Of a stretch of 64,000 nt of DNA, positions 1 through 38,138 are shown piece after piece. The DNA is from an uncultured Candidatus Saccharibacteria bacterium. GTDB lineage: Bacteria > Patescibacteriota > Minisyncoccia > Phycocordibacterales > CAIZLB01. The position numbers and the translations under genes are program-made. The DNA is taken from assembly GCA_964520545.1 (NCBI GenBank), contig CAZFOD010000003.1:20728-84727 (forward strand), in the 5' to 3' direction. How positions within the stretch are numbered: position 1 is the first letter of the stretch; each line of letters starts with the position of its first letter. The notes under the pieces are model-generated. The model was not told the DNA's origin and did not search any database. It worked only from the letters and a program-made list of their open reading frames with translations.

Positions 1-248
1 CTAGGGACGGCATAGTTGACAAAATCACATATTGTGCTATTCTGCTTGTAGGCAACGATTTTTGATTTGGTTGGGACAGGGCGGGCGCCATCACGTTTGA
101 GACTGCGTATTCGGTCACAGGATAACTGATTTGCTTTCTTTGCAGGAGCTTTCAATTGCCATCGAATGGTCAAGAACCTTGGCGCCCGCCTATCCACCCA
201 CTTCAATTTCGAAGTACGTCCCGTGCAAGACTGTTGCATATCTTTTAA

Positions 249-280
249 GAAGACACCCTGATCCGGTGTCTTTTTTCATT
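249..280 (+). terminator. Intrinsic terminator-like hairpin (AAGACACC...GGTGTCTT) followed by T-run
   Basis: Inverted repeat 249-256/265-272 followed by TTTTTT; lies upstream of tRNA-Ala. Confidence 0.4.
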
Positions 281-340
281 TATGTATACGTCTTGCTCTT
301 GTGTCGTTTTTTGGGTAAGATATCACCACGACACATATAC

Positions 341-416
341 GGGCCCTTAGCTTAGTTGGTAGAGCGCCTCATTTGCACTGAGGAGGTCGGGAGTTCGAAT
401 CTCCCAGGGTCCACCA
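341..416 (+). tRNA. tRNA-Ala (anticodon UGC), CCA encoded
   Basis: Cloverleaf readable by eye: acceptor GGGCCCT/AGGGTCC with G3:U70 Ala identity pair, D-arm GCTT-AGTTGGTA-GAGC, anticodon stem CCTCA/TGAGG with loop TTTGCAC (anticodon TGC), T-arm GGGAG-TTCGAAT-CTCCC, discriminator A + CCA. Confidence 0.9.
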
Positions 417-524
417 CCGTAGACAAAGTCAGATAAACATGATACTTTTCAGATGAAATTCAAGCGCCTAACTTGATGTTAGGACCTTCGCTTGATTCAA
501 GCTCGTTGATAGAAAGGATTTACC

Positions 525-743
525 ATGACGATACTCACTTGTTTGGGCTGGAAGACTCCTGCGGAAGCCCTTGCTATCTTCAAAGAGGCAGGACTGCCTT
601 CAGGAGAGCTCAGGAAAATTTTGGAGAGGCTTCGTGATTCCGCGGAGGCTCAAGAGGCTATGGAACATGTCTTAAAAGCCCCTCAATGTATAGCAAGAAA
701 ATTCGGGAGATTTCAAAAAAAAGAGGAAGCGAAGCAATCCTGA
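525..743 (+). CDS. Hypothetical small protein; possible upstream half of a frameshifted gene (see findings)
   Basis: 72-aa ORF ending 58 nt inside the next ORF; A8 homopolymer at 715-722 at the overlap. Confidence 0.3.
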   Translation: MTILTCLGWKTPAEALAIFKEAGLPSGELRKILERLRDSAEAQEAMEHVLKAPQCIARKFGRFQKKEEAKQS

Positions 744-1084
744 TAAGGAAGCCGATATCAAGGTACTCCGACATCGTGGATTTCCTGGGACTTTGTGGTT
801 TAAAAACTCGGATCTTGGTCGTTCAAGACGATGACCAAAACGGACCTAGGCCTGCTTTCTTGGCATTTGATGGGTTAGAAATAGATCGAGAGGACATTGA
901 GTTCTTGGAAAAGGTTGCCTGTAGCGGTAAATGGAGCGGCCAACGTCGATCTTTCAAGGCCACGATCGTGATAAGAACCCTGCAACAGAAGTTGGGATTT
1001 TCAGCTCTGTTCAATAATCGCGTGAATGAGTTGTGTCTGATCAAGATCCTGGAGGAGCGAACCGCTGAGCTGCTTTGGGAATAG
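686..1084 (+). CDS. Hypothetical protein (possible downstream half of split gene)
   Basis: 132-aa ORF in -1 frame relative to 525..743; terminator-like hairpin CCCCG...CGGGG + T-rich follows at ~1104-1140. Confidence 0.35.
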   Translation: MYSKKIREISKKRGSEAILIRKPISRYSDIVDFLGLCGLKTRILVVQDDDQNGPRPAFLAFDGLEIDREDIEFLEKVACSGKWSGQRRSFKATIVIRTLQQKLGFSALFNNRVNELCLIKILEERTAELLWE

Positions 1085-1349
1085 TCAGATTAGGAGATTG
1101 AAGGCACCCCGTAACACATGAGTTGTTGCGGGGTTTATTATTTTCACCGCGTTAACATGTGAACTTTGTGAACATTATTTGATACTGAGAATTTCTTTCA
1201 AGTAAATCAACTCATTTGCTATTTGGTTCAGAAAAACAACATTGAAGTCCGCTCGCATAGACATTTCTATAATTTAATGGTATTTTAATTTCGCTGTCGA
1301 AAGGACAGATGCGGTTGCATAGTGCGCCGTAAATCCGAAAGGGATTAAA

Positions 1350-1829
1350 TTGAACAAACATAGTCTAACAAAAACGGAGCTATTCATGCTCCAGCTCACG
1401 CAGTGGATTATTCAAAAACAGTTTGACCTAAAGCAAGGTCAATTCACCATCGTAGGGCAATCGTTTCAATCTGGCCCTGTGATTGAGGCTGGAGATCAAC
1501 CTGATCTGGAAAATAAGTTAACCCTGGAACGATGTCGTCGGGAGTCTCCAAACTCAACGGTGTGTCAGGTCAGAGATCTACGTCTTTTGATCGTCCGAGA
1601 CGGTGTTGACGAAGCGCGCTCGATGAGGATAACTTTCGAGACTGGCTATCGTCGGTTCAACCCACAATCGCCTAAGCTCATAGATCGAAAGCTGTTTTAT
1701 GTCTTCGCGCGTGATCACAAGTTGCGTAGGGGATATTACTTCGGTGCCCCAGACATTTACGGAGGAATCGACCACGTCGCAGACAAAATCTGGACAACGC
1801 TCGAGAATTTTCATCGAGTGACATTCTAA
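1350..1829 (+). CDS. Hypothetical protein
   Basis: 159-aa ORF, no recognised motif; followed by terminator 1834-1891. Confidence 0.4.
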   Translation: MNKHSLTKTELFMLQLTQWIIQKQFDLKQGQFTIVGQSFQSGPVIEAGDQPDLENKLTLERCRRESPNSTVCQVRDLRLLIVRDGVDEARSMRITFETGYRRFNPQSPKLIDRKLFYVFARDHKLRRGYYFGAPDIYGGIDHVADKIWTTLENFHRVTF

Positions 1830-1833
1830 CAAC

Positions 1834-1891
1834 CCACTTAAACCTTTAGGGAGATAGCAAACCCTAAGGCATCAGGTGGGTTTTCTATTTT
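1834..1891 (+). terminator. Intrinsic terminator (CCCAC...GGTGGG stem + TTTTCTATTTT)
   Basis: Hairpin CCCACTTAAACCTTTAGGG/CCCTAAGGCATCAGGTGGG then T-run; shares GGTGGGTTTTCT tail with terminators at 9179 and 28597. Confidence 0.5.
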
Positions 1892-1950
1892 AATATCGCC
1901 AAGTGATGGAAATAACGCATGTATCTTAATGCTCGTGCTACAATGTTTTC

Positions 1951-2676
1951 ATGATAAAACTCTTCGAAAAGTTCGTCCTATGTTTTCTTGCATTGACTGC
2001 AGCGGTTGTTGTTACTGTTTTCTTTATGCCAAAAGAAAGCGTTCAGGAAGTGGTTCCTTCTTTGCATGAAAGTGACGGTGCAATGTCAAAAACTGTTTTA
2101 GGTTTTGATAGAGATAATAAGACTTTTGCAGTTTTAGGTGAATCATCACTCGCCACCTCTACATTAGAACCTATCCAGTTTGTTCCCCCAAATACTGAAG
2201 TGCATACTTTACAGGTTTCTCCAGATGGAAAGTCTGTATACTACGTTCTTCGTACAAACCTCGAGTATGATGTTGTAAATCCTCAGGAAGGCAACCCCTC
2301 TGGTAGAATCGAATCCTTTGCAGCAATATATCGATATGATATGGAGAGTAAGGCTACGGAAGATATTTTGAGCGACAAGGATGTCAATCTACTATATCCT
2401 TCTAAAATGATATTTTCGCCTGGGGAAAAACGAATCGCTTTCGATGCGTATGGATGCACTAATTGCGGAGGTGGAGGACCTCGTAATATCATAATTTTCA
2501 ACAAAGAAATTCCGGGTTACCTTCAGCAATTCAAAAATCTCGGTCCTAGCGTGAATTTTAAATTTACAGGTCCAACCACATATGAATACAATGAATGGAT
2601 CCTAGATCCTGAGTGTAAAGCTGAGATGGCAGCTGCTTGCTCTAAGGCTGGTGCTAAACATACGGGAGAGTTTTAA
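1951..2676 (+). CDS. Secreted/membrane-anchored protein with beta-propeller-like (TolB-like) repeats
   Basis: N-terminal hydrophobic segment; repeated SPDGK.../IAFDA motifs typical of TolB-like propeller blades. Confidence 0.4.
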   Translation: MIKLFEKFVLCFLALTAAVVVTVFFMPKESVQEVVPSLHESDGAMSKTVLGFDRDNKTFAVLGESSLATSTLEPIQFVPPNTEVHTLQVSPDGKSVYYVLRTNLEYDVVNPQEGNPSGRIESFAAIYRYDMESKATEDILSDKDVNLLYPSKMIFSPGEKRIAFDAYGCTNCGGGGPRNIIIFNKEIPGYLQQFKNLGPSVNFKFTGPTTYEYNEWILDPECKAEMAAACSKAGAKHTGEF

Positions 2677-2833
2677 CTTGAATTAGTGTCTGTACTCTTT
2701 CCAGAAGCATGACGATTTTAAGGTTTGGTGCGCGAGGTTAATACAGGTTACGTAATATTGACGGATTCATAAACTCATTATATATTTCAGTCTGAACTTT
2801 ACGTTCCCAAACAATTAACCGGAGGAAAACCAA

Positions 2834-3640
2834 ATGCCTGAACAATGGCCTGAATCGTATTTAAAGGCATTCGATGCCTTCGTCGCTGACCCGCGTTCTG
2901 AACGCTACGTTGCAGCACTCTTTGACCACTATCGCACTGAACAGATGAAGGCGGCAGAACCTAAGAGTTGGAAAGTAATGGATGTGTGTTGCGGCACCGG
3001 CCTCATCGGCCGTGCATTGAAACACCATCTCGAATGTCTGGGTAAACACGTGGAGTTGACATTCGCAGACAGGTCTGGCGCGATCCTTGAAAGGATCGAC
3101 CTCGTGCCGACTGACTCCGTGATCCAAATAGACGTCACTTCAATGCCAGAGGTAACGTCGGAGAGCTACGATGCAGTCGTCTGTCGCTACGGCTTCAACA
3201 ACCTCCCACAGGAAGACTGGCTCAAGGCACTAGCGGAAGTTTTGCGAATTCTGAAACCCGGAGGCGTCTTTATCCTCCAAGATCACTTCGTCCCGGGGCC
3301 GACATTCTCGGCGCTGGTGAATGAAGCTGAGCAGTTTCTCGCAAAGATGGAAGGGAAGCGAGTGGCGCCCTTCATCTTCTCAACCGAAGCCTTCAACGCT
3401 GTTCTCGATGAGCATCCACTGGTCGTGAAGAGAGTAAAAGACGGCTATGGACTCTTCATCAACATCTGGGATCGGCTCCGCGCAAAGAAAGAGCTTCTGC
3501 CAGACTTCGAGGCTGCGAAGCGAGAGATCCTTCGCTTCTATCGGGAGATCTGCCTGGAGAAATACCAGGTGCTGATCGTTGACCCCGATGAGTACATCCA
3601 CGTTTATAACGTCACCTACGCGATCGAGAAGCGTGTGTGA
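2834..3640 (+). CDS. Class I SAM-dependent methyltransferase
   Basis: Motif I VMDVCCGTGLIG and post-I LKPGGVFIL; GC-richer than surrounding low-GC genes. Confidence 0.7.
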   Translation: MPEQWPESYLKAFDAFVADPRSERYVAALFDHYRTEQMKAAEPKSWKVMDVCCGTGLIGRALKHHLECLGKHVELTFADRSGAILERIDLVPTDSVIQIDVTSMPEVTSESYDAVVCRYGFNNLPQEDWLKALAEVLRILKPGGVFILQDHFVPGPTFSALVNEAEQFLAKMEGKRVAPFIFSTEAFNAVLDEHPLVVKRVKDGYGLFINIWDRLRAKKELLPDFEAAKREILRFYREICLEKYQVLIVDPDEYIHVYNVTYAIEKRV

Positions 3641-3656
3641 CTAAGAAAACAACAAT

Positions 3657-3698
3657 GCCGTGCATCGTCCGAGAGGAGGGTGTGCGGCTGTTTTTTTG
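3657..3698 (+). terminator. Intrinsic terminator after methyltransferase
   Basis: GC hairpin GCCGTGCA...GTGTGCGGC followed by TTTTTTT. Confidence 0.5.
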
Positions 3699-3769
3699 CT
3701 AGACTTTTTATAATCAGGTGGTACTTTTATTAAAACCCCAGAACAAAACAACGAACGAAAGGATACAAG

Positions 3770-4027
3770 ATGAAAAAGACGCGACTGCGCGCAGATAACA
3801 AGACAAACACGTACCTACTCATTTGCAAGAAAGTGGCCAAGGCACTTGAGAAGGAGATTGAAAAAATCACCGCTAAAACCCGAGTGCCACACGAGGCTTT
3901 CAATAGCTTAATCTCAAGGATGGAAGTGCAGAAGCACTTGAAAGCAATGCGATTGGACGTGGAGTGGCGGGAAGACCTGACTGTTCAGGAGTTAGCAAAC
4001 CTACTGTGGCCAAAGAAGGAGAAGTAA
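3770..4027 (+). CDS. Hypothetical small basic protein
   Basis: 85-aa ORF, Lys/Arg-rich; followed by hairpin CCCCG...CGGGG + TTTTGTGTTT at ~4030-4075. Confidence 0.35.
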   Translation: MKKTRLRADNKTNTYLLICKKVAKALEKEIEKITAKTRVPHEAFNSLISRMEVQKHLKAMRLDVEWREDLTVQELANLLWPKKEK

Positions 4028-4305
4028 GCCCCGATCATCAACCAGAACCACGTTCTGCAAGTTGAGGACGGGGTTTTGTGTTTATGGTAAAAGCAGATAT
4101 ATAGAGTCGTCCATATTGGTTTCGTCGAACTTAGGCAGTTCAACAAGTGAGTGCACCACCGAATTTCCATGAAGTAAAACCAAGTCCCACCACTAGACGA
4201 ATGAGGTTTTTAATTATATATTTGGGCCCGTAACGCCCAAGTAAGCGTTACTTGTTCTTTTACAGAGCAATCTAGTAAGTCAACCTCAAAACGGAGAAAT
4301 ACAAT

Positions 4306-5697
4306 ATGAGTCGCAAGACCCTGTTTGATACCGTGTGGGACGAGCACAGAGTGCGAAGTCTCCCACGTGGCCAGGATCAAATCCTGGTCGGCCGCCATCT
4401 GATCCATGAAGTTACGTCCCCACAGGCGTTTCCGATGGTTGAAGAGCGCGGTCTTTCGGTGCGCTTCCCAAAGAGCACCTTCGCCACGGTGGATCACATC
4501 GTGCCGACCGTCGGCCGCAATCGTCCTCTTTTGGACCCGATCGCGGAAATCATGCTCCAGCATCTGGAGCGCAACACAGCCAAACACAAGATCACCCTGT
4601 TCAACCTCGGCGACGAGAACCAGGGAATTGTGCACATCATCGGACCGGAATTGGGCATCACCCAGCCCGGAATGACGATCGCTTGCGGCGATAGCCATAC
4701 CTCCACACACGGAGCATTTGGTGCCATCGCCCTCGGCATCGGGACAACTCAAATTGCCTGCGTCCTCTCAACTGGATGCTTGCTGCTTGAGCGCCCGAAA
4801 GTGCGAAAGATCCAAGTTGACGGTGTCTTGGGAGAAGGCGTTACTGCCAAAGACATCACTCTCGCGATCATCAATCGCTTGGGCGTCAAGGGTGGTATCG
4901 GCTTCGCCTACGAATACGCCGGCAGTGCAATCCACGCACTCGACATGGAAGGTCGCATGACCATCTGCAATATGAGCATCGAAGGCGGTGCGCAGTGTGG
5001 TTATGTCAATCCAGATGAGATCACCGTCGAATATCTGCGGGGTCGGAAATACGTGCCGCAAGGCAACGAGTTCGACATCGCCGCGAAGCGGTGGCTCTCT
5101 CTGGCATCAGGACCCGATGCTGAATACGACGATGTCTTCGTCCTCCCAGCGTCGGAAATCGAACCGATGATGACCTACGGGATCACTCCCGGACAGTCCA
5201 TCGGTGTCAGCGGAACCATTCCGCTCGATGCGCCAAAAGATGCGCTCGATTACATGCAGCTTGAAGCGGGGAAACCTCTTCTCGGAACGAAAGTGAATGT
5301 GGCCTTCATCGGCTCGTGCACCAACGGTCGCATTAGCGATTTCCGCGAAGCGGCAAACCTCATCAAGAAGTATGGTCTCAAAGTTGCGCCTCATGTGACC
5401 GCACTTGCTGTACCGGGATCGGAAAACGTCCGCCGTCAAGCTGAAGGAGAAGGCCTCGATCGAGTCTTCACCGAAGCAGGATGGCAGTGGCGCGGATCCG
5501 GTTGCAGTATGTGCCTCGCCATGAACCCGGATAAACTCCAGGGTAACCAGTTGTGTGCTTCTTCATCGAACCGCAACTTCAAAGGTCGGCAAGGGAGTCC
5601 AACAGGACGAACTGTGCTGATGAGTCCCGCGTCGGTGGTCGCTTGCGCGACCGCCGGTCATATCGCGGATGTGCGAACAATAACCTCAGCGAACTGA
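4306..5697 (+). CDS. leuC: 3-isopropylmalate dehydratase large subunit (aconitase family)
   Basis: Motifs [37 protein letters not shown]; 463 aa; immediately followed by leuD-like gene. Confidence 0.85.
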
Positions 5698-5701
5698 TAC
5701 C

Positions 5702-6322
5702 ATGTTGAAAAAGATCACAAACATCTCCGGCGGTGGCTTTCACCTTCCCGGTAGCGACGTTGATACCGACCGGATCATTCCGGCACGGTTCCTCAAGTGC
5801 GTCACATTCGAGGGCTTGGGCAACCATGTCTTCGAAGACGATCGGGCCCAGCTCGCTGGGCGGCATCCGTTCGACAACGAACGCAACAAAGGCTGCAACA
5901 TCCTGGTTGTGGACGAAAACTTCGGGTCCGGCTCAAGCCGCGAACACGCAGTTCCAGCCCTCACTCAATGGGGCATCCAGGCCATCATCGGCCTTTCGTT
6001 CGCTGCGATCTTCCGTGGAAACGCGGTCGGCAACGGCCTCGTCTGCGTCACGGTCGAGAGGGAAGTGCACGACTTCATTACTCGCGAGATCAGTCTCGGC
6101 GCTTTCGCCGTCCACATCGATCTCGAGAAGATGGAAGTCACCACTGAGCATGCATCGGAAAGCCATCCGATGTGGTGTGCGATGCCTGACGCGCATCGTG
6201 AAAACCTCATGACCGGTGCCTGGGATGATATCGCAACCTGCATCGAAGCGGGAAGCGCTATCGAAGAAACGGCGGCTCGTCTGCCTTACTTCGAAATCCC
6301 GGTCCCCCTGCCCGCGGTCTAA
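5702..6322 (+). CDS. leuD: 3-isopropylmalate dehydratase small subunit
   Basis: LeuD-like DTDRIIPARFLK and VDENFGSGSSREHA motifs; 4-nt gap from leuC. Confidence 0.8.
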   Translation: MLKKITNISGGGFHLPGSDVDTDRIIPARFLKCVTFEGLGNHVFEDDRAQLAGRHPFDNERNKGCNILVVDENFGSGSSREHAVPALTQWGIQAIIGLSFAAIFRGNAVGNGLVCVTVEREVHDFITREISLGAFAVHIDLEKMEVTTEHASESHPMWCAMPDAHRENLMTGAWDDIATCIEAGSAIEETAARLPYFEIPVPLPAV

Positions 6323-6344
6323 CCACTAGATTGTTGAATAATAT

Positions 6345-6389
6345 GACCTCGTCTTCCTTCACAGGAGGGCGAGGTCTATTTTTTTATTT
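6345..6389 (+). terminator. Intrinsic terminator after leuD
   Basis: GACCTCG...CGAGGTC hairpin followed by TATTTTTTTATTT. Confidence 0.55.
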
Positions 6390-6484
6390 GACATACTTAT
6401 ATATAACAGTAATGTGGGAGCTAGACGCTTACTGAATAGGTAAGTGGTCCTTCAAAATCAACCTCAACCTACATATACTCGCAC

Positions 6485-7639
6485 ATGAAAGTTCATCCAA
6501 TCGCACTTGTAAACGGCGACGGCTCCGCTCCTGAAATGATGGCGGTAGCTTGCAAAGTCGCTCAACTCGCAGCAAAAAAAGATGGTCACGCGCTGGAGTT
6601 CCATCCTGCACCAATGGGCTGGAACGCATATCGTGATTACAACGACACGCTTCCTCAAAGTTCACTCGAAACAGCAATCAGTCTTGGCACCGTCTTCTTC
6701 GGCGGTGTCGGTGATCCACAGTTCGACAACACTATCGGTGTTGAAAAACCCGAAATGAAACCTGAAGCGCGGTGCCTCCTTCCTCTTCGGAGTAAAATGG
6801 GGCTTCTGCTCAACTTCCGTCCGATGATCTACTACAAGGATCTGGATCACCTCGCCAACGTCAAGCCCGAGACAATCCCAGCCGAAGGTGTCAGGCAAAT
6901 CTGGATCCGTTTCCTCCTCGAGGACAGCTACTTTGGAAATGCGGACTACAGTCTGAACCCCACGTTCGGACCCTACTTCAAACCAAAGAGCCAGGTGAGC
7001 GGCGAAGAGGACGTCGTCATGGATCTTGCCTATTATCAGCGCTCGACAATCGAGAAATACATTCGTGCGGCGTTCCGCGAAGCAAAAGCTCTCGGCCTTC
7101 CGCTCATCTCGATCGACAAAGCCAATGTCATGGCACGCTATGACTTCTGGCGCAAAATCGTCACGCGGATCGGGAAGAAAGAGTTCCCGGACGTCCCGCT
7201 GTCTCATCAACTCGTGGACTCAGCAAACGCCCTGCTCTTCACTCCGGCGAAATTGCACGGCGTCATTGCCTGCGGTAACGAACACGGAGACATCCTCTCG
7301 GATGGAGCAGCGGGTGCGCTCGGCAGTATGGGAATGATGTGCAGTTCTGCCATCAACCCTGACACTGGTGCAGCGATGTTCGAAAGTGGAGCTGGCACAG
7401 CGCCGACTCTTGCTGGACAGGACAAAGCCAACCCACTCGGTCGCATCCTCACCGCGGCAATGATGCTTCGTCACCTCGGTGCAACAAAGGGTGCAAACTC
7501 AATCGAGAAGGCGGTCAACCTCGTGCTTCGTGAGGGTTACCGCACAGGCGACCTCATCAGCGGAAAAGTTCGCGGTGACGTGACGCGAGTGGGCACGGAA
7601 GAAATGGGCAGTTTGGTTTTGAAGGAGATCGGCGAATAG
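6485..7639 (+). CDS. leuB: 3-isopropylmalate dehydrogenase-like (isocitrate/isopropylmalate dehydrogenase family)
   Basis: N-term IALVNGDGSAPEMM; NEHGDILSDGAAGALGSMGMMCSSAIN and ANPLGRILTAAMMLRHLG motifs; adjacent to leuCD. Confidence 0.7.
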   Translation: MKVHPIALVNGDGSAPEMMAVACKVAQLAAKKDGHALEFHPAPMGWNAYRDYNDTLPQSSLETAISLGTVFFGGVGDPQFDNTIGVEKPEMKPEARCLLPLRSKMGLLLNFRPMIYYKDLDHLANVKPETIPAEGVRQIWIRFLLEDSYFGNADYSLNPTFGPYFKPKSQVSGEEDVVMDLAYYQRSTIEKYIRAAFREAKALGLPLISIDKANVMARYDFWRKIVTRIGKKEFPDVPLSHQLVDSANALLFTPAKLHGVIACGNEHGDILSDGAAGALGSMGMMCSSAINPDTGAAMFESGAGTAPTLAGQDKANPLGRILTAAMMLRHLGATKGANSIEKAVNLVLREGYRTGDLISGKVRGDVTRVGTEEMGSLVLKEIGE

Positions 7640-7670
7640 GTTTTACCAACTCGCTAGTCATTCAATTCAT

Positions 7671-7707
7671 GGAGCGGCATACGAAAGTGTGCCGCTCCAA
7701 TTTTTTG
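7671..7707 (+). terminator. Intrinsic terminator after leuB
   Basis: GGAGCGGCA...TGCCGCTCC + AATTTTTTGT. Confidence 0.6.
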
Positions 7708-7710
7708 TAT

Positions 7711-7744
7711 CAAAAAACCTCCCTGTTCTGTCACAACAGGGAGG
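7711..7744 (-). terminator. Intrinsic terminator for minus-strand gene 7773..8546
   Basis: CCTCCCTGTT...AACAGGGAGG hairpin; on minus strand followed by T-run (plus-strand CAAAAAA 7711-7717). Confidence 0.5.
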
Positions 7745-7772
7745 TCTTACTTTTGAACATCATGGCCTGATC

Positions 7773-8546
7773 TCACTTCGTACGGACAATGCCTTCAGCG
7801 TATTCAGGGGTAAAGAGTTGCTTCCAACGATGTTTCTTCGGTGTAACCTCGATGGAATCAATGGGAATGAATCTTTTCCACGCCCACAACTCTTCGAAAC
7901 CTTTCTTCATCAGATGTGGAGTGTTCCACATATAGCCGAAAGGTGTCATGACCGGAGTTCGGATAAAAGTCAGCTGAAAAATGAAACCAGAAACGATTTC
8001 GACCTCAGCTTTTTCCGTTTCTTCACGGATTTGGATCAGTAAATGCTGTTCGCAATGAGCATGTAGACCCATTTCGTTGGTTGCACACCACTTACCACTA
8101 TGCAGATCGTAGGCGAATCCGAATACTTCATGTCCGAAGCCAGCTCCACGATCACCAGACACATAGACTCCGCCGTCGGCACGTCTTTCCATTCGTGCGC
8201 TGCAGACCTCATCGTCAAAAGTTTCAACTTCACTGTCGGTCATGCTCTGCAGTTTTGAGACATCTGCATCAAACACGCTTGGGTCAACAGGTTGGGGCAT
8301 CTGGGTGCCTTCATGGTAAATCTTGCACCTTCTTGTGACAGCTTCATCAAACGTGCTTTTGAGCATGTAACCGTGTGAAATACCTGTCCGCAGTTTTTCA
8401 AACAGTGCTCCTTGATCACGGGTTGTTGCTCCGAGCTCGATGACACCATCGGTCCCGAGAGCCTCCTCATGCATTGCTGCATGTATTTCGTCATTTGTGG
8501 GAGTCCTACGACGCCCCTTTCCTGATTTGGGTTTGTCGTTTTTCAT
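7773..8546 (-). CDS. Hypothetical protein (possible metal-binding H/C residues near C-terminus)
   Basis: 257-aa ORF, GC-richer; no confident family assignment. Confidence 0.45.
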   Translation of the reverse strand: MKNDKPKSGKGRRRTPTNDEIHAAMHEEALGTDGVIELGATTRDQGALFEKLRTGISHGYMLKSTFDEAVTRRCKIYHEGTQMPQPVDPSVFDADVSKLQSMTDSEVETFDDEVCSARMERRADGGVYVSGDRGAGFGHEVFGFAYDLHSGKWCATNEMGLHAHCEQHLLIQIREETEKAEVEIVSGFIFQLTFIRTPVMTPFGYMWNTPHLMKKGFEELWAWKRFIPIDSIEVTPKKHRWKQLFTPEYAEGIVRTK

Positions 8547-8631
8547 TTGGTGGTGAATGGGTTGAAGTTAAAGAGCGGGCCTCAACGTGAGGTCCGGAAA
8601 AAAGAATACCATAATTTTGCTTAATAGCAAT

Positions 8632-8649
8632 TTAACAGTCAACTGTTAA
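8632..8649. promoter_or_regulatory. Palindrome TTAACAGT-ca-ACTGTTAA in divergent intergenic region
   Basis: Perfect 8-bp inverted arms with 2-nt spacer between divergently oriented genes 7773..8546(-) and 8770..9177(+). Confidence 0.3.
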
Positions 8650-8769
8650 AAAATTATCACTCCAACACAGTAGACAATCCTCAACCATCATGGTATTACA
8701 TGACAGGCAGTATATTGTTTTCATAAGTCACAGCACATCACCAAAACCAGTACATAGAAAGGAAAAACC

Positions 8770-9177
8770 ATGAAATCATGCTTAGTTGTCTTGTTTAGCA
8801 TCCTCCTCGTCGGAGTGTATGCACCTGCGGAGGCTCAAACCATCATCATTCACACTCACTACGACGCCAAGCGTTATGTGGGAGAATATGTCGTCGATAC
8901 AAGTCGCACCGTTGATATTGAGGACGGTGAGGGGCGGAAGGGAGTTTGTGTCGTCCTCTACAAGGTGGTTAAGAAGGGAGAAAAGGCATTTCCTCCCATT
9001 GCTTTTCCTGAAGGATCGGGAGCCGTAACCGCTAACGATTTGAGAAAAGCAGTCAGGGTTACTCTCGAACCAACGGTCTTCGTTGATCGCCTGTGGGTGA
9101 CGTACTACGACGTCACTGGGCGAGCATTCTTTACCTCAACGATGTATCCGCTCGACGAGCGGATCAAGAAGAAATAG
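8770..9177 (+). CDS. Secreted hypothetical protein (signal peptide)
   Basis: N-terminal MKSCLVVLFSILLVGVYAPAEA signal-like segment. Confidence 0.45.
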   Translation: MKSCLVVLFSILLVGVYAPAEAQTIIIHTHYDAKRYVGEYVVDTSRTVDIEDGEGRKGVCVVLYKVVKKGEKAFPPIAFPEGSGAVTANDLRKAVRVTLEPTVFVDRLWVTYYDVTGRAFFTSTMYPLDERIKKK

Positions 9178-9178
9178 G

Positions 9179-9226
9179 CCCACCCCGAGCAGAGACCCTC
9201 TGCTCTTGCGGTGGGTTTTCTGTTTA
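9179..9226 (+). terminator. Intrinsic terminator (CCCACC...GGTGGG + TTTTCTGTTT)
   Basis: GAGCAGAG/CTCTGCTC core stem extended by CCCACC/GGTGGG, T-run follows. Confidence 0.55.
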
Positions 9227-9292
9227 TACAAACCCTTCACAATCTCTCTGCAGCACATAAAAGCTGGTGTATAATAAAAATATATAAATTAG

Positions 9293-10867
<1,575 letters not shown>

Positions 10868-10882
10868 TTTAGAAGCGATACC

Positions 10883-11437
10883 ATGTACAAGAACATAATC
10901 ATCACATTCTTCGTAATTGTCTTCATTGTTGCAGGTATTGCTTTGTTGTTTGATAGGAATTCATCAGAGCCTGTATCTGCACCGGAAACACCAACCCCAT
11001 CAGCAAAGGCGAGTATGGTTCCATATTCAAATACTGAATATGGCATCTCTTTTGAATATCCATCAAACTTGTATCTTAGTGAAAAAGAAATGAGTTCTTC
11101 AAGTCCAGAGTTTTCCATCTCACTTGTAGAAAGTAGTTCTACAGTTGAAGAATCTCCAGTTTCAATTTTTGTTGATGTGTACAAGAACAAAAATGATCTT
11201 AGTGCAAAGGAATGGATTTCTAAAGAAACAAATTGGACTGTGGCAGGTCAAACTATGAAGGATGTTGAAGTCAGAGGGCTTGCAGGTGTCATATATACAT
11301 ATGACGGGTTGTACCCAGGTAAGGCGTATGTTTTTACCTCTAAGGGGCGCACATATGTCCTTTCGGTAAACTGGCTTAGCTTGAACGATCAACTCATCAA
11401 AGATTTTGATATGATCATCAATTCGCTGGGTATATAA
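10883..11437 (+). CDS. Membrane-anchored extracytoplasmic hypothetical protein
   Basis: Single N-terminal TM helix, Ser-rich linker. Confidence 0.45.
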   Translation: MYKNIIITFFVIVFIVAGIALLFDRNSSEPVSAPETPTPSAKASMVPYSNTEYGISFEYPSNLYLSEKEMSSSSPEFSISLVESSSTVEESPVSIFVDVYKNKNDLSAKEWISKETNWTVAGQTMKDVEVRGLAGVIYTYDGLYPGKAYVFTSKGRTYVLSVNWLSLNDQLIKDFDMIINSLGI

Positions 11438-11449
11438 ACAACTATTGAT

Positions 11450-12394
11450 ATGAAATTTAGCATCATCATTTGCGGCTACAATGAAGCGCAATATTTAAAT
11501 GCTTGTTTTGAGTCTTGTTTAAATCAGCAATATTCTAAAGCGGAGTATGAAATCATATTCATCGACAATTGCTCATCAGATGACACTGCAAGTATTGTTT
11601 TAAAGTATCCAGAAGTAAGGACAGCGGTGGAATTGCGACGTGGCCCTGCTGAGGCTCGTAACAAAGGTATATCGATGGCAAAAGGTGATACATTTCTCTT
11701 CCTTGATGCTGACGCAGAACTTGCCCCGACATATCTCACAAATTGCGAACAGGTATTTAAAAGTGATGATAAAATCGGCGCTGTAACAGGAAAAGTTTTG
11801 CCTTCAGTAAGTACATGGATATCAAACTATCAAGGGGTTGCAATACTTGAGAATTACCCACGATACAATCGAAGAAAAAATATGCTCGCGTGTCCGAGTT
11901 GTAACCTAGTAGTACGAAGAGACGTGATCTCCAAAACTGGAGGCTTTCTTGAAGGAATTCCTTCTCCCTCAGGTGTTAATCGATCAGGAGAAGATAAGGA
12001 GCTTTGTGAAAGAATACGAAAGGAAGGATTTAGGATTGTGTATGATCCGAGTATATCTATTAGACACGATAATGCTCGAACCTTTCGAAGGCTTTTTTCA
12101 ATATGGACCAAGGGGGCAAGATCAAGGGCTACTACGATATCGATGGGCAAGAGTGATTTGTCGAGCGTATTGTTTCGATACAACATTCCATTTCTTTTAA
12201 TTCTTGGATCTATACTTTTCCCAAAACTATTAGGGACGATATGCCTTCTAGTATTAGTTTCTCTTTGTGTTAGTTCATTTAAAAATACGGGTATGTTTGT
12301 GCAGAGTTTTTTTATAAAGCCATGGATGGATATCTTGGCACTTGTTAGTATAAATATATCGGTGCTGTATTACAGGATTACTATAAAATCATGA
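11450..12394 (+). CDS. Family 2 glycosyltransferase
   Basis: FSIIICGYNEAQYL...IIFIDNCSSDDT and LDADAE motifs; C-terminal TM helices. Confidence 0.8.
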   Translation: MKFSIIICGYNEAQYLNACFESCLNQQYSKAEYEIIFIDNCSSDDTASIVLKYPEVRTAVELRRGPAEARNKGISMAKGDTFLFLDADAELAPTYLTNCEQVFKSDDKIGAVTGKVLPSVSTWISNYQGVAILENYPRYNRRKNMLACPSCNLVVRRDVISKTGGFLEGIPSPSGVNRSGEDKELCERIRKEGFRIVYDPSISIRHDNARTFRRLFSIWTKGARSRATTISMGKSDLSSVLFRYNIPFLLILGSILFPKLLGTICLLVLVSLCVSSFKNTGMFVQSFFIKPWMDILALVSINISVLYYRITIKS

Positions 12395-13674
12395 TTGAGT
12401 ATTTTATAAAAGCATATCATGATCATAAGGGGCATATTCCAAACATCTTGTGGCAAGTGTTGTATGCGGTAGGGAAACAGATATTTATTCTAGGTGTCTT
12501 TGTAATGGGGATTTTCTTGTTGAATCCGTATGACTTTGGTTTGTATAATTATGTTACGGCAATCTTACTACTCTTTGTATTATTTGGAGACTTTGGTATT
12601 TCAATGGCAGCATCAAAGTTTGTAGCTCATTACAGGGCACTAGATCATGAGCGAGAAGGAGCTGTGCTATGGAATGCTACGCTCTTTGCGCTCTTGTTCA
12701 TAGTTTTATCAGGGGGAGTTCTTTCTCTGTTTGCACCAAGACTTTTTGGTGAAAACGCACGTTATCTATATGTCCTTTTCCCTTCTCTTCTATTTCTCCC
12801 TCTGGGATATTTGTATGCAGGAATATATCGAGGTGTAGGAAGATTTAAGGCAACCGCTTGGATAACTTTCTTTGTAGGTATATTTAGTCTGGTTATTACT
12901 TTTTTTCTGATGCGAACTTATGGGTTGCACGGAGCCTTGTGGGGAAACAACATCTTCTCTTTTTTACTTTTTGTAAGTCTTGCTCTGGGATACCGTAAGT
13001 GGTCTTGGAAATTAGATGTTGGGCTTATGAAAATTATTGGTTCATACTCTTTGATATTAGGCTTCACGGGGCTTAGCTATTACCTCTACAGCCGAGTCGA
13101 CATCATTCTCCTTGGTAAGTTCAATTACATCGCGGAAATCGGCTTCTATGAGCTCATAAACAAGGTATTTATGATACTCGCGGCACCGTTCATGATATTG
13201 GCACAGGCCATTGGCCCCATGGTAAGCGGTATGCACGCCAGAGGAGAATTTAAGAGGGTTTTACATACATACAAGCAACTGATGTTTTTGAGCCTTGTAG
13301 GAGCATTGTTGCTCACTATCGGAACATATTTTGTTGCACCTATTGTCCTTAGATCAAGTTTTACTCACTATGCAAATCCAATGTTCATCAATGCGCTCTA
13401 TATCTCACTCATCATGCTCATCGGACAATCACTTTCAACTGTGACAGCTATTGGCTTTAGTGTTTCAACAGGACATGCGAATATTAATATGTATTTTCTT
13501 TTGATATGTGGAATCATAAACATCCCACTAACATATTTTTTCATTAAAGCCTTTGGGTTCATGGGGGCAATTTACGCCACTGTCATCATCCGGTGCCTCA
13601 CCGACATATTGTTCATCACATACTATTACTTCGTTCTTAGGAAAAAGGCAGTCTACTTGTTTGGAGGAAAGTAA
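12391..13674 (+). CDS. Polysaccharide flippase (Wzx/MOP superfamily-like)
   Basis: ~12 predicted TM helices; overlaps GT2 stop by ATGA; typical operon partner. Confidence 0.65.
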   Translation: MIEYFIKAYHDHKGHIPNILWQVLYAVGKQIFILGVFVMGIFLLNPYDFGLYNYVTAILLLFVLFGDFGISMAASKFVAHYRALDHEREGAVLWNATLFALLFIVLSGGVLSLFAPRLFGENARYLYVLFPSLLFLPLGYLYAGIYRGVGRFKATAWITFFVGIFSLVITFFLMRTYGLHGALWGNNIFSFLLFVSLALGYRKWSWKLDVGLMKIIGSYSLILGFTGLSYYLYSRVDIILLGKFNYIAEIGFYELINKVFMILAAPFMILAQAIGPMVSGMHARGEFKRVLHTYKQLMFLSLVGALLLTIGTYFVAPIVLRSSFTHYANPMFINALYISLIMLIGQSLSTVTAIGFSVSTGHANINMYFLLICGIINIPLTYFFIKAFGFMGAIYATVIIRCLTDILFITYYYFVLRKKAVYLFGGK

Positions 13675-15650
13675 TATATCAGTCCGCCTTTGTCTTGATA
13701 TACAACCTTACCTAGGCTGTTTAGAAATGGAATGAACTCTGGACCCATATTTCGTGCTGGGAAACTAAATATGTAATATGCAGGTTTTTTAACTTTCCCG
13801 ATGTCTCGATAGTCTAGTTCAGAAGAGTTTACATACTCATCGTTTGTAAGTAGCCCTGTGTCATTGTTGACGACGATATAGTCTGGAGAAGTTTCTAGCA
13901 GGAGATAGTAGGGAGTTGAAAAGCCTTTGTCTGTGAGCATTGTTGCTGTACCTAATGCTCCTGTTGAAACAATGTAGTTTAAGGCAGCATCGTAATTCGC
14001 ATTCTTTGCTGTATTTTTGGAGTTTCTTTCTGTTGCAGAGTTTCCTTCAACCCATCCTCCGTATGCTGTGGTTGTAAGGAGGGTAAGAATTAACATTGAA
14101 AAGACAAATCGTTGAAAGCCATTCTTTAAAGCTTCTGTATATCGCACTAGTACATATGCAACTGTGATTGTAAGGAACGGGAGAGCTGGATATATATATC
14201 TAATGGCGGAAGCTGAATATCCTTGGTATGCAACGATGGAATACCATCCTGCTGTAATTGAGAATATGTAGAGAATTCTTCTGTTTAAAGTTGTGAAGAG
14301 AAGCGGAAGAAGCAGTACACCTATTACCACAATATATGAATATTGGTTGACTGAGAGATAGTGAAAGAATTCCCCGAAAGGTTTGTCTGGCTGTAACATC
14401 TTCCAGTCCGGTTGAGGATATTTAATGAGCTGAATTAGTTTAAAGTTACTTCCATTGTCATAAGCAATCTTTGCAACTAATGTAAAGAAACTTAGAAACG
14501 TTATGAGTAACGACTTAGGATCTTTGTTAAATATAAATATGAGAATACCTACTGCAATGAGGGGATATAGGATGAATCCGACTAATTCCTGAGTATCAAA
14601 GCAAACTACTCCAATAAGAAGAATCCAGATGATGGTAAAAATAATCTTTGCCTTCAATTCTGGATTTCCAAAGTTTCTCATTACCCCCGCGGCTTTTGAA
14701 TACCAATTAGTTTTGGTGATAAGATCATCGAGTCTGATTAAAAGAAAGCAAAGTATTACAAACAGCGAAGTAAACATTTCGTAAAATCTCGCCTCTCTAA
14801 ACATGCTCACAGATATCCATGAGAAACTAAAAAGCGCAGAAGCAATGATTCCTACTTTCTTGTTATGTACATATGAACCAAGGAAGAATACTCCAAGTAA
14901 GCTTGCGAGAAAGAAAGGAATATTGGCGACTCGAGCTGCAATGTACACATCAAACCCACTGAAGGTGTCTAAAAACCAAGCAAGGTAATGGTGATATATG
15001 ATGGCACGATCGTAGAACATACCACTTAGAAGACTTTGCCCTAGACCTGCATTGATTTGCTTTGCTACCAATACGGTAGTTGTCTCATCAATCCACAACT
15101 CAAGACTTGTGAGCTGTATGATCCGCATGAATATACCTGCGAGTAGTACGAGGATGAATGCTGCAGAGTATGTTGCTAATTCTGCGAGTGAATCTTCTTG
15201 CCCCTTCTTTGTGCTTGTAAGTGAAGTTGTTGAAGCATCTACCTCTCGATCTCTCGAAAGAGATATGGTGAGATGTGCTGAGATATATAGTATGCCTAAT
15301 AAGAGAAGGTTTAATTCTAGAGGGTTAATAAATGTGTTTTTCTGGATATATTGAGATGTTTCAAGGCCAGCAATATATACATACATTTGGAGCACGAGAC
15401 AGAGGCAGAATACAAGGGCAGAAGATGTGTATACTCGTGCTTTCCATGTATCTGAAAGGCTGTGCAGTTTTTCTGATAGTGAGTAGCTAAAAAACGGAAG
15501 TGTTATCAATATGAGCGTAAAGTAATCGATTAAGTTCCTTGTACTTAAGATATTGAATTGAGAAAGGGCGTACAGAATAAGTAGAGTAGGTGAGAGCATC
15601 CATCCTAGTGGAACAAGAAAATGTTTTTTGAATATATATAGTCTATTCAT
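13653..15650 (-). CDS. GT-C fold membrane glycosyltransferase (PMT/ArnT-like) with N-terminal extension
   Basis: Many TM helices; DE motif in extracytoplasmic loop (ELWIDETTTVLVAKQI); C-terminal soluble domain. Confidence 0.5.
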   Translation of the reverse strand: MNRLYIFKKHFLVPLGWMLSPTLLILYALSQFNILSTRNLIDYFTLILITLPFFSYSLSEKLHSLSDTWKARVYTSSALVFCLCLVLQMYVYIAGLETSQYIQKNTFINPLELNLLLLGILYISAHLTISLSRDREVDASTTSLTSTKKGQEDSLAELATYSAAFILVLLAGIFMRIIQLTSLELWIDETTTVLVAKQINAGLGQSLLSGMFYDRAIIYHHYLAWFLDTFSGFDVYIAARVANIPFFLASLLGVFFLGSYVHNKKVGIIASALFSFSWISVSMFREARFYEMFTSLFVILCFLLIRLDDLITKTNWYSKAAGVMRNFGNPELKAKIIFTIIWILLIGVVCFDTQELVGFILYPLIAVGILIFIFNKDPKSLLITFLSFFTLVAKIAYDNGSNFKLIQLIKYPQPDWKMLQPDKPFGEFFHYLSVNQYSYIVVIGVLLLPLLFTTLNRRILYIFSITAGWYSIVAYQGYSASAIRYIYPALPFLTITVAYVLVRYTEALKNGFQRFVFSMLILTLLTTTAYGGWVEGNSATERNSKNTAKNANYDAALNYIVSTGALGTATMLTDKGFSTPYYLLLETSPDYIVVNNDTGLLTNDEYVNSSELDYRDIGKVKKPAYYIFSFPARNMGPEFIPFLNSLGKVVYQDKGGLIYYFPPNK

Positions 15651-16770: not shown

Positions 16771-16953
16771 CTATATGTAAAATATTATAACCTACAAACA
16801 TTTAATGCAATGACCGGAATGCATATTCTCCTTAATTGTTTGAATAAAATAGGTTTCTGATATACCCTCATAGGAGAGCCGGAAATATTCGGCCAGCTAT
16901 ATGCGCAGCTTAACGCGCAGTTTTAAGAACATTGATTTGAAAGGCTGAACATT

Positions 16954-17637
16954 ATGTTTCGAAACACGTCACAATGGACGCATCTTTTTGAGGAGAGGGA
17001 TGCATTGTGGATACACGGCGGAAACCCCAAACAGCCGCACGTTATCCTACATTCTGGGAAACACTCAAGCGCCTACTTCATGGCAAAGCTTGTAACGGAA
17101 GACGATACGCTGAGAAGTGAGATGGTCTCTGATCTTCTCGACCTTCTCATTGAAAGAGGTTTTGATGTTGAGGTCGTTGATCGGATCGTCGGTCCTGCTA
17201 CGGGCGCAACAAAGCTCGCGGTGAGCCTTGCTGCGGAGATCACTAAACGGCGTGGTCGCATCTGTCGATCTGCATCACTCGAAAAGCTTAGCAATGGAGC
17301 TAACCTTCGGATGGTCTTCAAGAAGCTGGACGATTGTGTTCAAAGTGGGGAAAACGTTTTGATCATTGAAGATGCGTTTACCACCGGCAGCAGTGTCAGG
17401 CTTGCTCAACTTGCCGTTGTTGCACAGGGCGGTATATGCCCGCCCTACGTTCTGACGTTGATGAATCGCTCCGGACGTAATTTCCACAATGGCTACAGGG
17501 TCATCTCGCTTGTCAATCGCTATCTGCCCATCTGGGATGGCAAAGATGACTGTCAGTTGTGCTCCATCCGCTCTGAGGCCATCCTTCCGAAGGAACCGGC
17601 GTCCAATTGGGAGCGTCTCAAGCGGGGGCGACGATAA
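16954..17637 (+). CDS. Type I phosphoribosyltransferase, orotate PRTase (PyrE)-like
   Basis: PRPP-binding motif VLIIEDAFTTGSS; N-terminal HVILHSGKHSSAYF resembles OPRTase substrate loop; GC-richer. Confidence 0.5.
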   Translation: MFRNTSQWTHLFEERDALWIHGGNPKQPHVILHSGKHSSAYFMAKLVTEDDTLRSEMVSDLLDLLIERGFDVEVVDRIVGPATGATKLAVSLAAEITKRRGRICRSASLEKLSNGANLRMVFKKLDDCVQSGENVLIIEDAFTTGSSVRLAQLAVVAQGGICPPYVLTLMNRSGRNFHNGYRVISLVNRYLPIWDGKDDCQLCSIRSEAILPKEPASNWERLKRGRR

Positions 17638-17650
17638 TGATCGGCATTAA

Positions 17651-38129: not shown

Positions 38130-38138
38130 TAAATACAA

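Follow-up and report, generated by a model that had tools for sequence, protein, structure and literature searches.

A GC-rich isopropylmalate isomerase and dehydrogenase module in a Patescibacteria-like genome: a probable composite of accessory genes exchanged among Candidate Phyla Radiation bacteria

A conspicuously GC-rich block is located between about 3 and 8 kb of a 64-kb stretch of contig CAZFOD010000003.1 (positions 20,728 to 84,727), assigned to an uncultured Candidatus Saccharibacteria bacterium; the whole 64-kb stretch is called the window below. The block contains genes for a class-I S-adenosylmethionine (SAM)-dependent methyltransferase (MTase), for the two subunits of a bacterial-type 3-isopropylmalate isomerase (leuC and leuD), and for a dehydrogenase similar to 3-isopropylmalate dehydrogenase (IPMDH). 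The last three genes are referred to as the module. We consider it probable that the accessory genes of the block were acquired independently of one another by a Paceibacteria-like genome of the Candidate Phyla Radiation (CPR), which makes the block a composite, and that the module is exchanged horizontally among Patescibacteria. The sequence comparisons indicate that its units have moved, with recombination, among CPR genomes, and that neither a single import nor vertical descent accounts for them.

In all nine CPR loci analyzed, that is, the window and eight others, the module exceeds the rest of its locus by 9–20 GC points. For comparison, leuC in 13 non-CPR loci deviates from its locus by −1 to +6 GC points, and its GC content at third codon positions (GC3) tracks that of the genome, from 0.25 in Prochlorococcus to about 0.9 in Vicinamibacteria. 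Because non-CPR leuC stays so near its locus, protein composition accounts for at most about 5 GC points. The divergence between the window and one of the CPR loci, L001, could be calibrated with the syntenic genes for LeuRS, a sigma/HARE protein, and a DUF8128 protein, which are shared by both. LeuRS is only 55% identical, with a synonymous divergence (dS) of about 3 (NG86), and the sigma/HARE gene is saturated, whereas dS is 0.92 for leuC and 0.89 for leuD. Thus, the leu genes were shared well after the host lineages had split, in agreement with a preliminary description of the sequence, in which they were regarded as horizontally acquired accessory genes. Atypical GC3 and codon usage, a patchy distribution, a variable location, and a divergence below that of host genes, the usual signs of horizontal acquisition, were all observed.

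The comparison with a closer relative, L166, revealed a mosaic. The dS values between the window and L166 are 0.31 for leuC, 0.59 for leuD, and 1.75 for the dehydrogenase gene, and the identity drops in the interior of leuD, suggestive of a breakpoint of recombination. To judge from these values, leuCD and the dehydrogenase gene have different divergence histories. Such mosaicism fits the layout of the module, because a terminator and a separate promoter-like site lie between leuD and the dehydrogenase gene.

Composition, layout, and integrity of the block

The GC content per kb is 50–56% from 3 to 8 kb and about 37–45% in most of the window (the mean of the whole window is about 40–43%). Across 60 genes of the window, the median GC3 is 0.365, with a robust standard deviation of 0.060. 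The MTase, leuC, leuD, and dehydrogenase genes are GC3 outliers at z = 4.0–5.6, and CGC is the dominant Arg codon in the block, whereas CGA and AGA are used almost exclusively in the genes for ribosomal proteins and in housekeeping genes. The block is compositionally foreign to its genome, and the contrast that had been noticed by eye is real. The exception is the open reading frame (ORF) at 7773–8546, which had been counted among the GC-rich genes; it is only mildly raised and is not an outlier. The features of the region are as follows.

341–416, plus strand: tRNA-Ala(TGC), found with ARAGORN and Rfam; given for context only, not as an integration site; 2.4 kb before the first GC-rich gene
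2834–3640, plus strand: class-I SAM-dependent methyltransferase (Pfam Methyltransf_25/11/12/23); GC 0.529, GC3 0.628; promoter-like site at 2758–2786
3657–3697, plus strand: intrinsic terminator after the MTase gene, hairpin and U7, −26 kcal/mol, z −4.4
3770–4027, plus strand: small GC3-rich ORF of 85 aa, GC3 0.616, without Pfam or NCBIfam match; called as a gene in independent assemblies
4040–4082: terminator-like hairpin after the 85-aa ORF, z −3.8
4306–5697, plus strand: leuC, large subunit of 3-isopropylmalate dehydratase, bacterial type; GC 0.566, GC3 0.631; promoter-like site at 4194–4222
5702–6322, plus strand: leuD, small subunit of 3-isopropylmalate dehydratase; GC 0.581, GC3 0.700; 4-nt gap after leuC
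6345–6386, plus strand: strong intrinsic terminator at the end of the leuCD unit, 14-bp stem and T-run, −25.4 kcal/mol, z −7.7
6485–7639, plus strand: IPMDH-like beta-decarboxylating dehydrogenase (Pfam Iso_dh), predicted transcription unit of its own; GC 0.546, GC3 0.605; promoter-like site at 6451–6479
7670–7699 (plus strand, dehydrogenase) and 7717–7745 (minus strand, convergent ORF): two back-to-back terminators, −26.1 and −23.6 kcal/mol, z −7.7 and −5.8
7773–8546, minus strand: convergent ORF of 257 aa, without Pfam or NCBIfam match; GC 0.478, GC3 0.457
8770–9177, plus strand: small ORF of 135 aa at the right edge of the unusual region, GC 0.50, GC3 0.559, z 3.2, without family match
9178–9225: terminator after the 135-aa ORF (hairpin prediction)
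9305–10867: low-GC, host-like FAD-linked oxidase directly to the right of the block

Each of four genes, namely those for the MTase, LeuD, and the dehydrogenase and the ORF on the minus strand, is followed by a strong hairpin with a U-run (energies of −23.6 to −26.1 kcal/mol, z-scores between −4.4 and −7.7). A terminator behind every gene had been proposed; this holds for these four, but not for leuC, which lacks a terminator of its own because leuD begins 4 nt further on. The signals predict that leuC and leuD are co-transcribed and that leuCD and the dehydrogenase gene form separate transcription units. The genes of the block are separated by AT-rich, host-like spacers with their own promoters and terminators. 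No homolog of the ORF at 7773–8546 adjoins the module in any of the relatives, and this ORF probably lies outside the module.

Translational selection was considered as a source of the high GC3 and rejected, because the ribosomal, chaperone, and aminoacyl-tRNA synthetase (aaRS) genes of the window have a low GC3 and encode Arg by CGA, not by CGC.

The block is not the sole GC island, and 12 of the 60 genes of the window are GC3 outliers, which suggests that the source organism has a general class of GC-rich accessory genes. Isolated outliers (robust z 2.7–4.2) are found at 686–1084, 3770–4027, 8770–9177, 16954–17637 (a weakly matching PyrE-like phosphoribosyltransferase), 28258–28587, and 61722–62453 on the minus strand (an alpha/beta hydrolase). 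A second island at 24.2–27.0 kb (24193–26973, 52–57% GC) contains a xylose-isomerase-like TIM-barrel protein of the "sugar phosphate isomerase/epimerase" type (24424–25356, minus strand) and a 399-aa ORF without a family (25660–26859, plus strand); the NCBI gene calls differ here (290 aa and 109 aa). Both proteins are found exactly on a separate Logan contig of 2,658 bp, so that the assembly breaks at both borders of this island.

The MTase passes only the generic Pfam domains of class-I SAM-dependent methyltransferases and fails the UbiE/MenG-type equivalogs (best TIGR01934, 48 bits versus a cutoff of 158). Its family is small (38 clusters), and a 78% identical relative, L175, resides in a different context with a modest GC excess and without leu genes nearby. 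An MTase gene adjoins leuCD in none of the leuCD relatives. Because its own relatives are not linked to leuCD, the MTase gene is an independent accessory gene and a chance neighbour of the leu module. The preliminary description had treated the block as one island, a notion at odds with this lack of linkage and with the different histories of leuCD and the dehydrogenase gene. Since the yeast methyltransferase Tmt1 is linked to 3-isopropylmalate, the MTase might have been a Tam/Tmt1-like companion of the leu enzymes; this idea was dropped, as the relatives are unlinked to leuCD and no specific family was matched.

A high-GC fragment of another organism might have been joined to, or binned into, a CPR contig by artefact, a concern that had also been raised for this block. 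Contigs in metagenome-assembled genomes (MAGs) can be chimeric, and two Logan assemblies indeed break inside leuC, at 4945–4974, with an overlap of only 30 nt. However, contigs of two sequencing runs tile positions 1–17639 of the window at 100% identity: L173 (SRR7369912) covers 1–4974 and continues upstream into UvrB, UvrA, UvrC, and Ddl, L174 (SRR7369911) covers 2119–4974, and L170 (SRR7369911) covers 4945–17639. On each of these contigs, GC-rich DNA passes into low-GC DNA at one junction; both junctions are covered, and either half of leuC is continuous with CPR DNA of low GC. The break coincides with the codons of a universally conserved LeuC motif, in which related leuC genes share exact runs of 26–35 nt, and is the k-mer branch point expected between co-occurring alleles. 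Furthermore, the identity of leuC to L166 is uniform across the break (87–95% per 150 nt), without any switch, and similar GC islands are present in the eight other CPR loci, including a closed genome. With both junctions confirmed at 100% identity by three independent contigs, the block is no assembly chimera, and the probability of an artefact is negligible.

Relatives, chromosomal contexts, and modes of inheritance

The surroundings of the block are CPR-like, as had been noted initially: the window encodes DUF5671 and DUF5667 proteins, a sigma-r4/HARE-HTH protein, LeuRS, a 613-aa AlaRS without the C-Ala domain, and many ORFs without a family. In the LeuRS (29935–32790), the editing domain is followed by an inserted NUDIX hydrolase domain (residues 388–511), and the same NUDIX-LeuRS is encoded by L001 (1951–4968, minus strand) in a conserved gene order of LeuRS, sigma-r4/HARE-HTH, and DUF8128. 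The window also contains two YceG/MltG-like paralogs (17705–18559, minus strand, and 35216–36181), the G6PD gene (20195–21481), two histidine kinases, and, at 37269–38909, an ATP-cone/Mrr_cat protein followed by a PD-(D/E)XK nuclease.

Among the database matches of LeuC, those from 95% down to about 66% identity include MAGs labelled Patescibacteria or Paceibacterota; LeuCs of non-CPR bacteria (Planctomycetota, Spirochaetota, Acidobacteriota, and cyanobacteria) appear only at 64% identity or less. Pattern-based LeuC scans of genome and metagenome contigs were swamped by universal motifs and returned almost exclusively relatives of at most 63% identity, which served as controls from outside the CPR and supplied canonical LeuBs. 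For seven close relatives of LeuC the context was retrieved. All seven lie in CPR-type neighbourhoods, recognizable by a HARE-HTH sigma protein, the NUDIX-LeuRS, tRNA_bind, N_methyl pilins, and many ORFans, and some of the contigs are 0.3–0.85 Mb long. In a neighbour-joining tree, the LeuC of the window belongs to a clade of 56 sequences (the window and 55 database clusters; bootstrap 64/100). All relatives whose CPR context or label was verified fall into this clade, which is nested among the LeuCs of Planctomycetota, Acidobacteriota, and Spirochaetota. The nine clusters of this clade that were checked, by context or label, are all CPR-like. An ad hoc "window subclade" had a bootstrap of 0% and was not used.

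The chromosomal site of the module differs in every genome examined, and so does its extent. The arrangement leuC-leuD-dehydrogenase is present in the window, L166, L167, L006, and L003. L001, whose LeuC is 83% identical to that of the window, lacks the dehydrogenase gene and has the order asd-leuC-leuD; its aspartate-semialdehyde dehydrogenase gene (8849–9841) has an intermediate GC of 0.457. L004 and L168 have leuC-leuD alone, and an NmrA-like NAD(P)-binding gene is located upstream of leuCD in L168 and L169. The dehydrogenase gene, in turn, adjoins a gene for an aconitase-family dehydratase in six of seven contexts, five times bacterial-type LeuCD and once a fused type-II LeuC/LeuD. The latter case is the closed Nealsonbacteria genome of 639,534 bp (CP179888.1, L171), in which a 71% identical dehydrogenase directly follows a non-orthologous fused LeuC-LeuD. 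This fusion is a single ORF of 650 aa (6035–7987) with a type-II LeuC/HacA-like and a LeuD-like part (PRK00402, 485 versus a cutoff of 385); the stored gene call is restricted to 222 aa at its C-terminus. Again, the dehydratase-dehydrogenase pair forms a GC island (46% versus 31–36%). In the seventh context, L172, a 72% identical dehydrogenase gene (8001–9221 of the 3.25-Mb contig ERZ21831019 ctg34051l) stands alone, without leuCD, at a local GC of about 47%. It nests inside the CPR sequences of the tree although its genome is far above CPR size, suggesting a possible transfer between a CPR and a non-CPR bacterium.

These data bear on the idea, advanced in the preliminary description, that an MTase-leuCDB island was recently imported as a whole from a high-GC non-CPR donor and integrated downstream of the tRNA-Ala gene. 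The sharp contrast in GC and codon usage, the upstream tRNA gene, and the inclusion of high-GC Acidobacteriota and Planctomycetota among the nearest non-CPR LeuCs are in line with this scenario. Nevertheless, it is highly improbable. The nearest LeuC relatives (66–95%) are found in CPR contexts, the dehydrogenase is only 30–37% identical to LeuBs of the donor type, and neither the absence of linkage between MTase and leuCD elsewhere nor the host-like spacers between the genes is expected for one imported unit. Because LeuC groups with CPR sequences and shares no more than 64% identity with any non-CPR LeuC, the results point not to a one-off import from outside but to a pool exchanged throughout the CPR. 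Grouping with CPR sequences had been named beforehand among the refuting outcomes.

A role of the tRNA-Ala gene as an integration hotspot also found no support. A domain search of positions 1–12 kb detected no integrase, as already noted from the sequence, and no transposase was found. The first 20 kb contain no partial copy of the tRNA-Ala 3′ end (att-like fragment). A single pair of repeats flanks the block, 16 nt at 1875 and 9210, and it consists of terminator tails, not of an att signal. In addition, the 2.4-kb gap between the tRNA and the block contains a low-GC host gene (1951–2676, GC3 0.31). The tRNA-integrated island was therefore rejected. No phage, plasmid, or viral vehicle was found either: IMG/VR contigs, GenBank phages, and PLSDB plasmids yielded only canonical LeuBs of at most 37.5% identity and not a single member of the dehydrogenase family.

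Alternatively, the genes could have entered the CPR once, long ago, and could have been inherited vertically ever since, with their GC content preserved by amino-acid constraints or by selection. The LeuC clade is indeed confined to CPR bacteria as far as checked, and the GC excess is present in all nine loci, even between members with saturated dS. Moreover, LeuC is about 4–6 points above its locus also in AT-rich non-CPR genomes (Prochlorococcus, L089), and the high GC at the first and second codon positions is due to protein composition. However, vertically inherited leuC of AT-rich genomes is fully adapted at the third position (GC3 of 0.25–0.33), compared with 0.56–0.75 here, and other conserved enzymes of the window (G6PD, DnaK, and the aaRS) have a low GC3. 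The dS of about 0.9 for leuCD in a genome pair whose syntenic host genes are saturated, the different chromosomal location in every genome, and the dS mosaic inside the module are equally difficult to reconcile with vertical inheritance, which we regard as improbable. Exchange among CPR genomes remains the preferred interpretation, and higher-GC CPR lineages are possibly the source of the GC-richness of the module. High-GC Parcubacteria exist, for example, the genus C7867-001 at about 58% GC (PMC11188291).

The isomerase subunits and the dehydrogenase

The gene families assigned initially (class-I SAM-dependent MTase, Aconitase for LeuC, Aconitase_C for LeuD, and Iso_dh) were confirmed with Pfam and NCBIfam. 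LeuC passes the subfamily models PRK05478 (650.2 bits versus a cutoff of 510) and PRK12466 (591.5 versus 531), matches Pfam Aconitase at 2e-153, and falls narrowly short of the stricter equivalog_domain model TIGR00170 (548.4 versus 560.25). The three Cys ligands of the 4Fe-4S cluster are retained (motifs GSCTN and CSMC), and the motifs DSHT and SNRNF are present. LeuD has the Pfam domain Aconitase_C and the motif GSGSSREHA; it passes PRK01641 marginally (169.8 versus 167) and misses TIGR00171 (102.9 versus 116.25). From these matches and residues, LeuC and LeuD are predicted to be canonical subunits of a bacterial-type isopropylmalate isomerase.

The results for the dehydrogenase were different. 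It had been described as LeuB-like, which is correct for the IPMDH fold and catalytic residues, but not for membership in the LeuB equivalog, since its scores are far below the LeuB cutoffs (TIGR00169, 236.4 versus 353.2; PRK03437, 155.8 versus 393). The family members of L171 and L172 likewise stay below these cutoffs. The dehydrogenase is 30–37% identical to the canonical LeuBs encoded beside leuCD in other phyla, compared with 63–100% within its own family. This family comprises more than 120 clusters (90% clustering level) at 68% identity or more, with members from Pacebacteria, Nealsonbacteria, Taylorbacteria, and "Patescibacteria group" MAGs, which NCBI labels only as "isocitrate/isopropylmalate family dehydrogenase". 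An exhaustive search returned one main 50%-identity representative (62% identity, 500 bits) and few satellites at 43–53%, beyond which the plateau of canonical LeuBs begins (at most 40% identity and 234 bits). Accordingly, a very long stem branch separates the family from the LeuBs in a neighbour-joining tree.

Alignments with the IPMDH structure 2AYQ and with canonical LeuBs show that the residues corresponding to R94, R104, R132, Y139, K185, D217, D241, and D245 of IPMDH are retained, as is the Leu-Leu pocket; across the family, these catalytic and substrate-binding positions are invariant or at least 90% conserved. The AlphaFold (AF2) model of the protein has a pLDDT of 93.5, and its top 50 neighbours in the PDB are all IPMDHs (TM-scores of 0.8–0.9, 30–36% identity). 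Features that set the family apart are the motif RxLL(E/D)DSYFG in place of RELTGGxYFG of canonical LeuB, about 15 extra residues inserted behind the catalytic Tyr, and the cofactor loop, which reads ESGAGTAPTLAG instead of the NAD loop EPxHGSAPDIAG. The family consensus of this loop, ESGAGTAPTL(A/S)G, entails replacements of His by Ala, Asp by Thr, and Ile by Leu, each at least 95% conserved. The replaced Asp is the residue known from IPMDH cofactor engineering to discriminate against NADP. By these sequence features, the dehydrogenase represents a discrete, compact IPMDH-like subfamily that is widespread in Patescibacteria and is not a LeuB equivalog. In view of the modelled fold and pocket, it probably works like IPMDH, on a hydrophobic 3-alkylmalate.

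Putative function and comparison with known systems

The module consists of two units, leuC-leuD for the 4Fe-4S 3-isopropylmalate isomerase of the canonical bacterial type and the dehydrogenase gene of the discrete IPMDH-like subfamily, which is predicted to be transcribed separately. In the proposed mechanism, LeuCD would isomerize a 2-alkylmalate to a 3-alkylmalate, which the dehydrogenase would oxidatively decarboxylate to a 2-oxo acid, CO2, and NAD(P)H. Most likely, this would be the leucine branch, from 2-isopropylmalate to 2-oxoisocaproate; the alternative would be the isoleucine branch, from citramalate to 2-oxobutyrate. The module would be non-native without being a single import from a distant phylum, landing at differing sites and being GC-richer than the recipient each time.

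The window and about 10 kb around the module (or up to the contig end) in the eight other CPR loci were annotated with Pfam. Neither an HMGL-like/LeuA gene nor a class-IV aminotransferase gene (ilvE) was found in the window or in these flanks. Amino acid synthesis genes are reported to be generally incomplete in the phylum (PMC13293708). Because a condensing enzyme and an aminotransferase are not linked to the module, and because of this phylum-wide incompleteness, we favour a pathway fragment that would work on a hydroxy acid supplied from outside, by a host or the community, over de novo leucine synthesis. This is the weakest link of the overall explanation, within which we give it a chance slightly short of even. 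The low-GC FAD-linked oxidase to the right of the block has its best matches to the N-terminal half of YdiJ (D-2-hydroxyglutarate dehydrogenase) and to GlcD, both far below the cutoffs; it is thus a 2-hydroxy-acid oxidoreductase beside a hydroxy-acid module, an adjacency that is not conserved in the relatives.

Complete leucine biosynthesis would require leuA, ilvBHCD, and ilvE elsewhere in the genome, with the block contributing steps 2 and 3 and the odd dehydrogenase serving as the LeuB of the lineage. LeuC and LeuD are canonical and intact, the dehydrogenase retains the Leu-Leu pocket typical of IPMDH, the closest fold, and bacterial leu genes are not always clustered. Furthermore, Parcubacteria from soil and seepage have larger genomes and more, though still incomplete, pathways (PMC11188291). 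Nevertheless, we consider a complete pathway unlikely: apart from the missing leuA, ilvE, and HMGL-like genes around nine loci and the incompleteness typical of the phylum, several relatives have leuCD without a dehydrogenase gene nearby, and at least seven further genes would be needed in genomes of about 0.6–0.9 Mb.

A bolder version of the pathway fragment is that a LeuCD-type dehydratase and a dedicated, previously undescribed dehydrogenase form a self-contained two-step cassette that circulates widely in Patescibacteria, so that a pathway is split between symbiont and host. This is a tentative proposal, with a chance of perhaps one in a few. The dehydrogenase would be the constant partner, combined with a dehydratase of either the bacterial or the fused type-II kind. 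An alkylmalate of the host or community (2-isopropylmalate or citramalate) would be converted to a 2-oxo acid for leucine or isoleucine synthesis or for reducing power, and the lasting GC-richness would result from continual re-seeding by higher-GC CPR lineages or from selection on the cassette.

Several observations weigh against the interpretation as an exchanged pathway fragment. The low dS of leuCD could partly reflect constraints on codons or GC rather than recency. A GC excess in nine of nine loci, even for pairs with saturated dS, is odd for recent arrival followed by amelioration and hints at some force that maintains the GC content. Of the 55 database clusters that form the LeuC clade together with the window, only 9 are verified as CPR by context or label, and the support of this clade is moderate (64%) and based on neighbour-joining only. 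The dehydrogenase family is not strictly CPR-specific, because the member in L172 occurs, without leuCD, in a genome that is not of CPR size. The search for a vehicle among integrases, transposases, repeats, viral contigs, phages, and plasmids was negative. Both the substrate and the cofactor assignments are predictions, and the cofactor loop differs from that of NAD-dependent IPMDH. Finally, the window comprises 64 kb of a source contig of 194 kb, and leuA and ilv genes may lie elsewhere.

Patchy metabolism shaped by horizontal gene transfer is well established for CPR bacteria. A full-text literature search found no paper that ties isopropylmalate genes to CPR or Patescibacteria, and the cassette, the dedicated dehydrogenase subfamily, and the universal GC-foreignness appear to be undescribed so far. 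The enzymology, on the other hand, is probably the same as that of the known bacterial leuCD and leuB. CPR bacteria are regarded as host-dependent and devoid of amino acid biosynthesis; a conserved two-step fragment that is transferred repeatedly suggests a specific hand-off of a metabolite between them and their hosts or communities. The dehydrogenase, as one compact and highly conserved subfamily, is a tractable target for measuring substrate and cofactor use, and the leu genes, GC-foreign in nine of nine genomes and with unsaturated dS next to saturated host genes, offer a clean marker of gene flow in the CPR. If leuA and ilv genes were present after all, there would be CPR lineages with unexpected leucine prototrophy. 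The significance would increase if a split pathway or an active process of GC maintenance were demonstrated.

Compared with LeuC and LeuD of the E. coli/Salmonella type (PRK05478, PRK01641), the proteins of the window pass the same subfamily cutoffs and share the Fe-S ligands, the GSSREHA motif, and the organization as adjacent genes predicted to be co-transcribed; the identity to LeuC of prototrophs (Prochlorococcus, Vicinamibacteria) is about 60%. The differences are that the genes of the window reside in a reduced CPR genome without a linked leuA or canonical leuB, and that they are GC-foreign and, by our interpretation, horizontally exchanged among CPR bacteria. The dehydrogenase shares with LeuB of Thermus thermophilus (2Y41), Arabidopsis (5J32), and Bacillus coagulans (2AYQ) the fold (TM-scores of 0.8–0.9), the catalytic Arg, Tyr, Lys, and Asp residues, the Leu-Leu pocket, and the gene position beside leuCD. 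It differs from canonical LeuB by the identity of only 30–37%, the TIGR00169 score below the cutoff, its own motifs, the altered cofactor loop, and the insertion of about 15 aa.

The D-malate and tartrate dehydrogenases DmlA and TtuC belong to the same Iso_dh superfamily of beta-decarboxylating hydroxy-acid dehydrogenases, but fit far less well (TIGR02089, 142 bits versus a cutoff of 470; 3FLK, 69 bits versus about 195 for IPMDHs). In E. coli, DmlA can stand in for LeuB, an example of how promiscuous this family is toward its substrates. The type-II (archaeal or HacA-type) LeuC/LeuD or homoaconitase, combined with a dehydrogenase of the AksF type, follows the same logic of a dehydratase and a beta-decarboxylating dehydrogenase. 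However, the dehydratase of the window is of the bacterial type, and its dehydrogenase scores much lower with the AksF and HICDH models (about 116–129 bits versus cutoffs of 500–540).

In the leucine plasmids of Buchnera, too, genes of the leucine pathway form an accessory unit that can be mobilized or amplified, within the reduced genome of a symbiont. In this obligate symbiont, leuABCD is located on a plasmid, and the unit completes a pathway that provisions the host. The dehydrogenase query matched 64 Buchnera plasmid records as LeuB homologs. However, Buchnera has leuA and a canonical leuB, whereas the module of the window has no linked leuA, encodes a dehydrogenase of another subfamily, and was found on no carrier; what the two systems have in common is a set of leucine-pathway genes that behaves as an accessory unit of a reduced genome.

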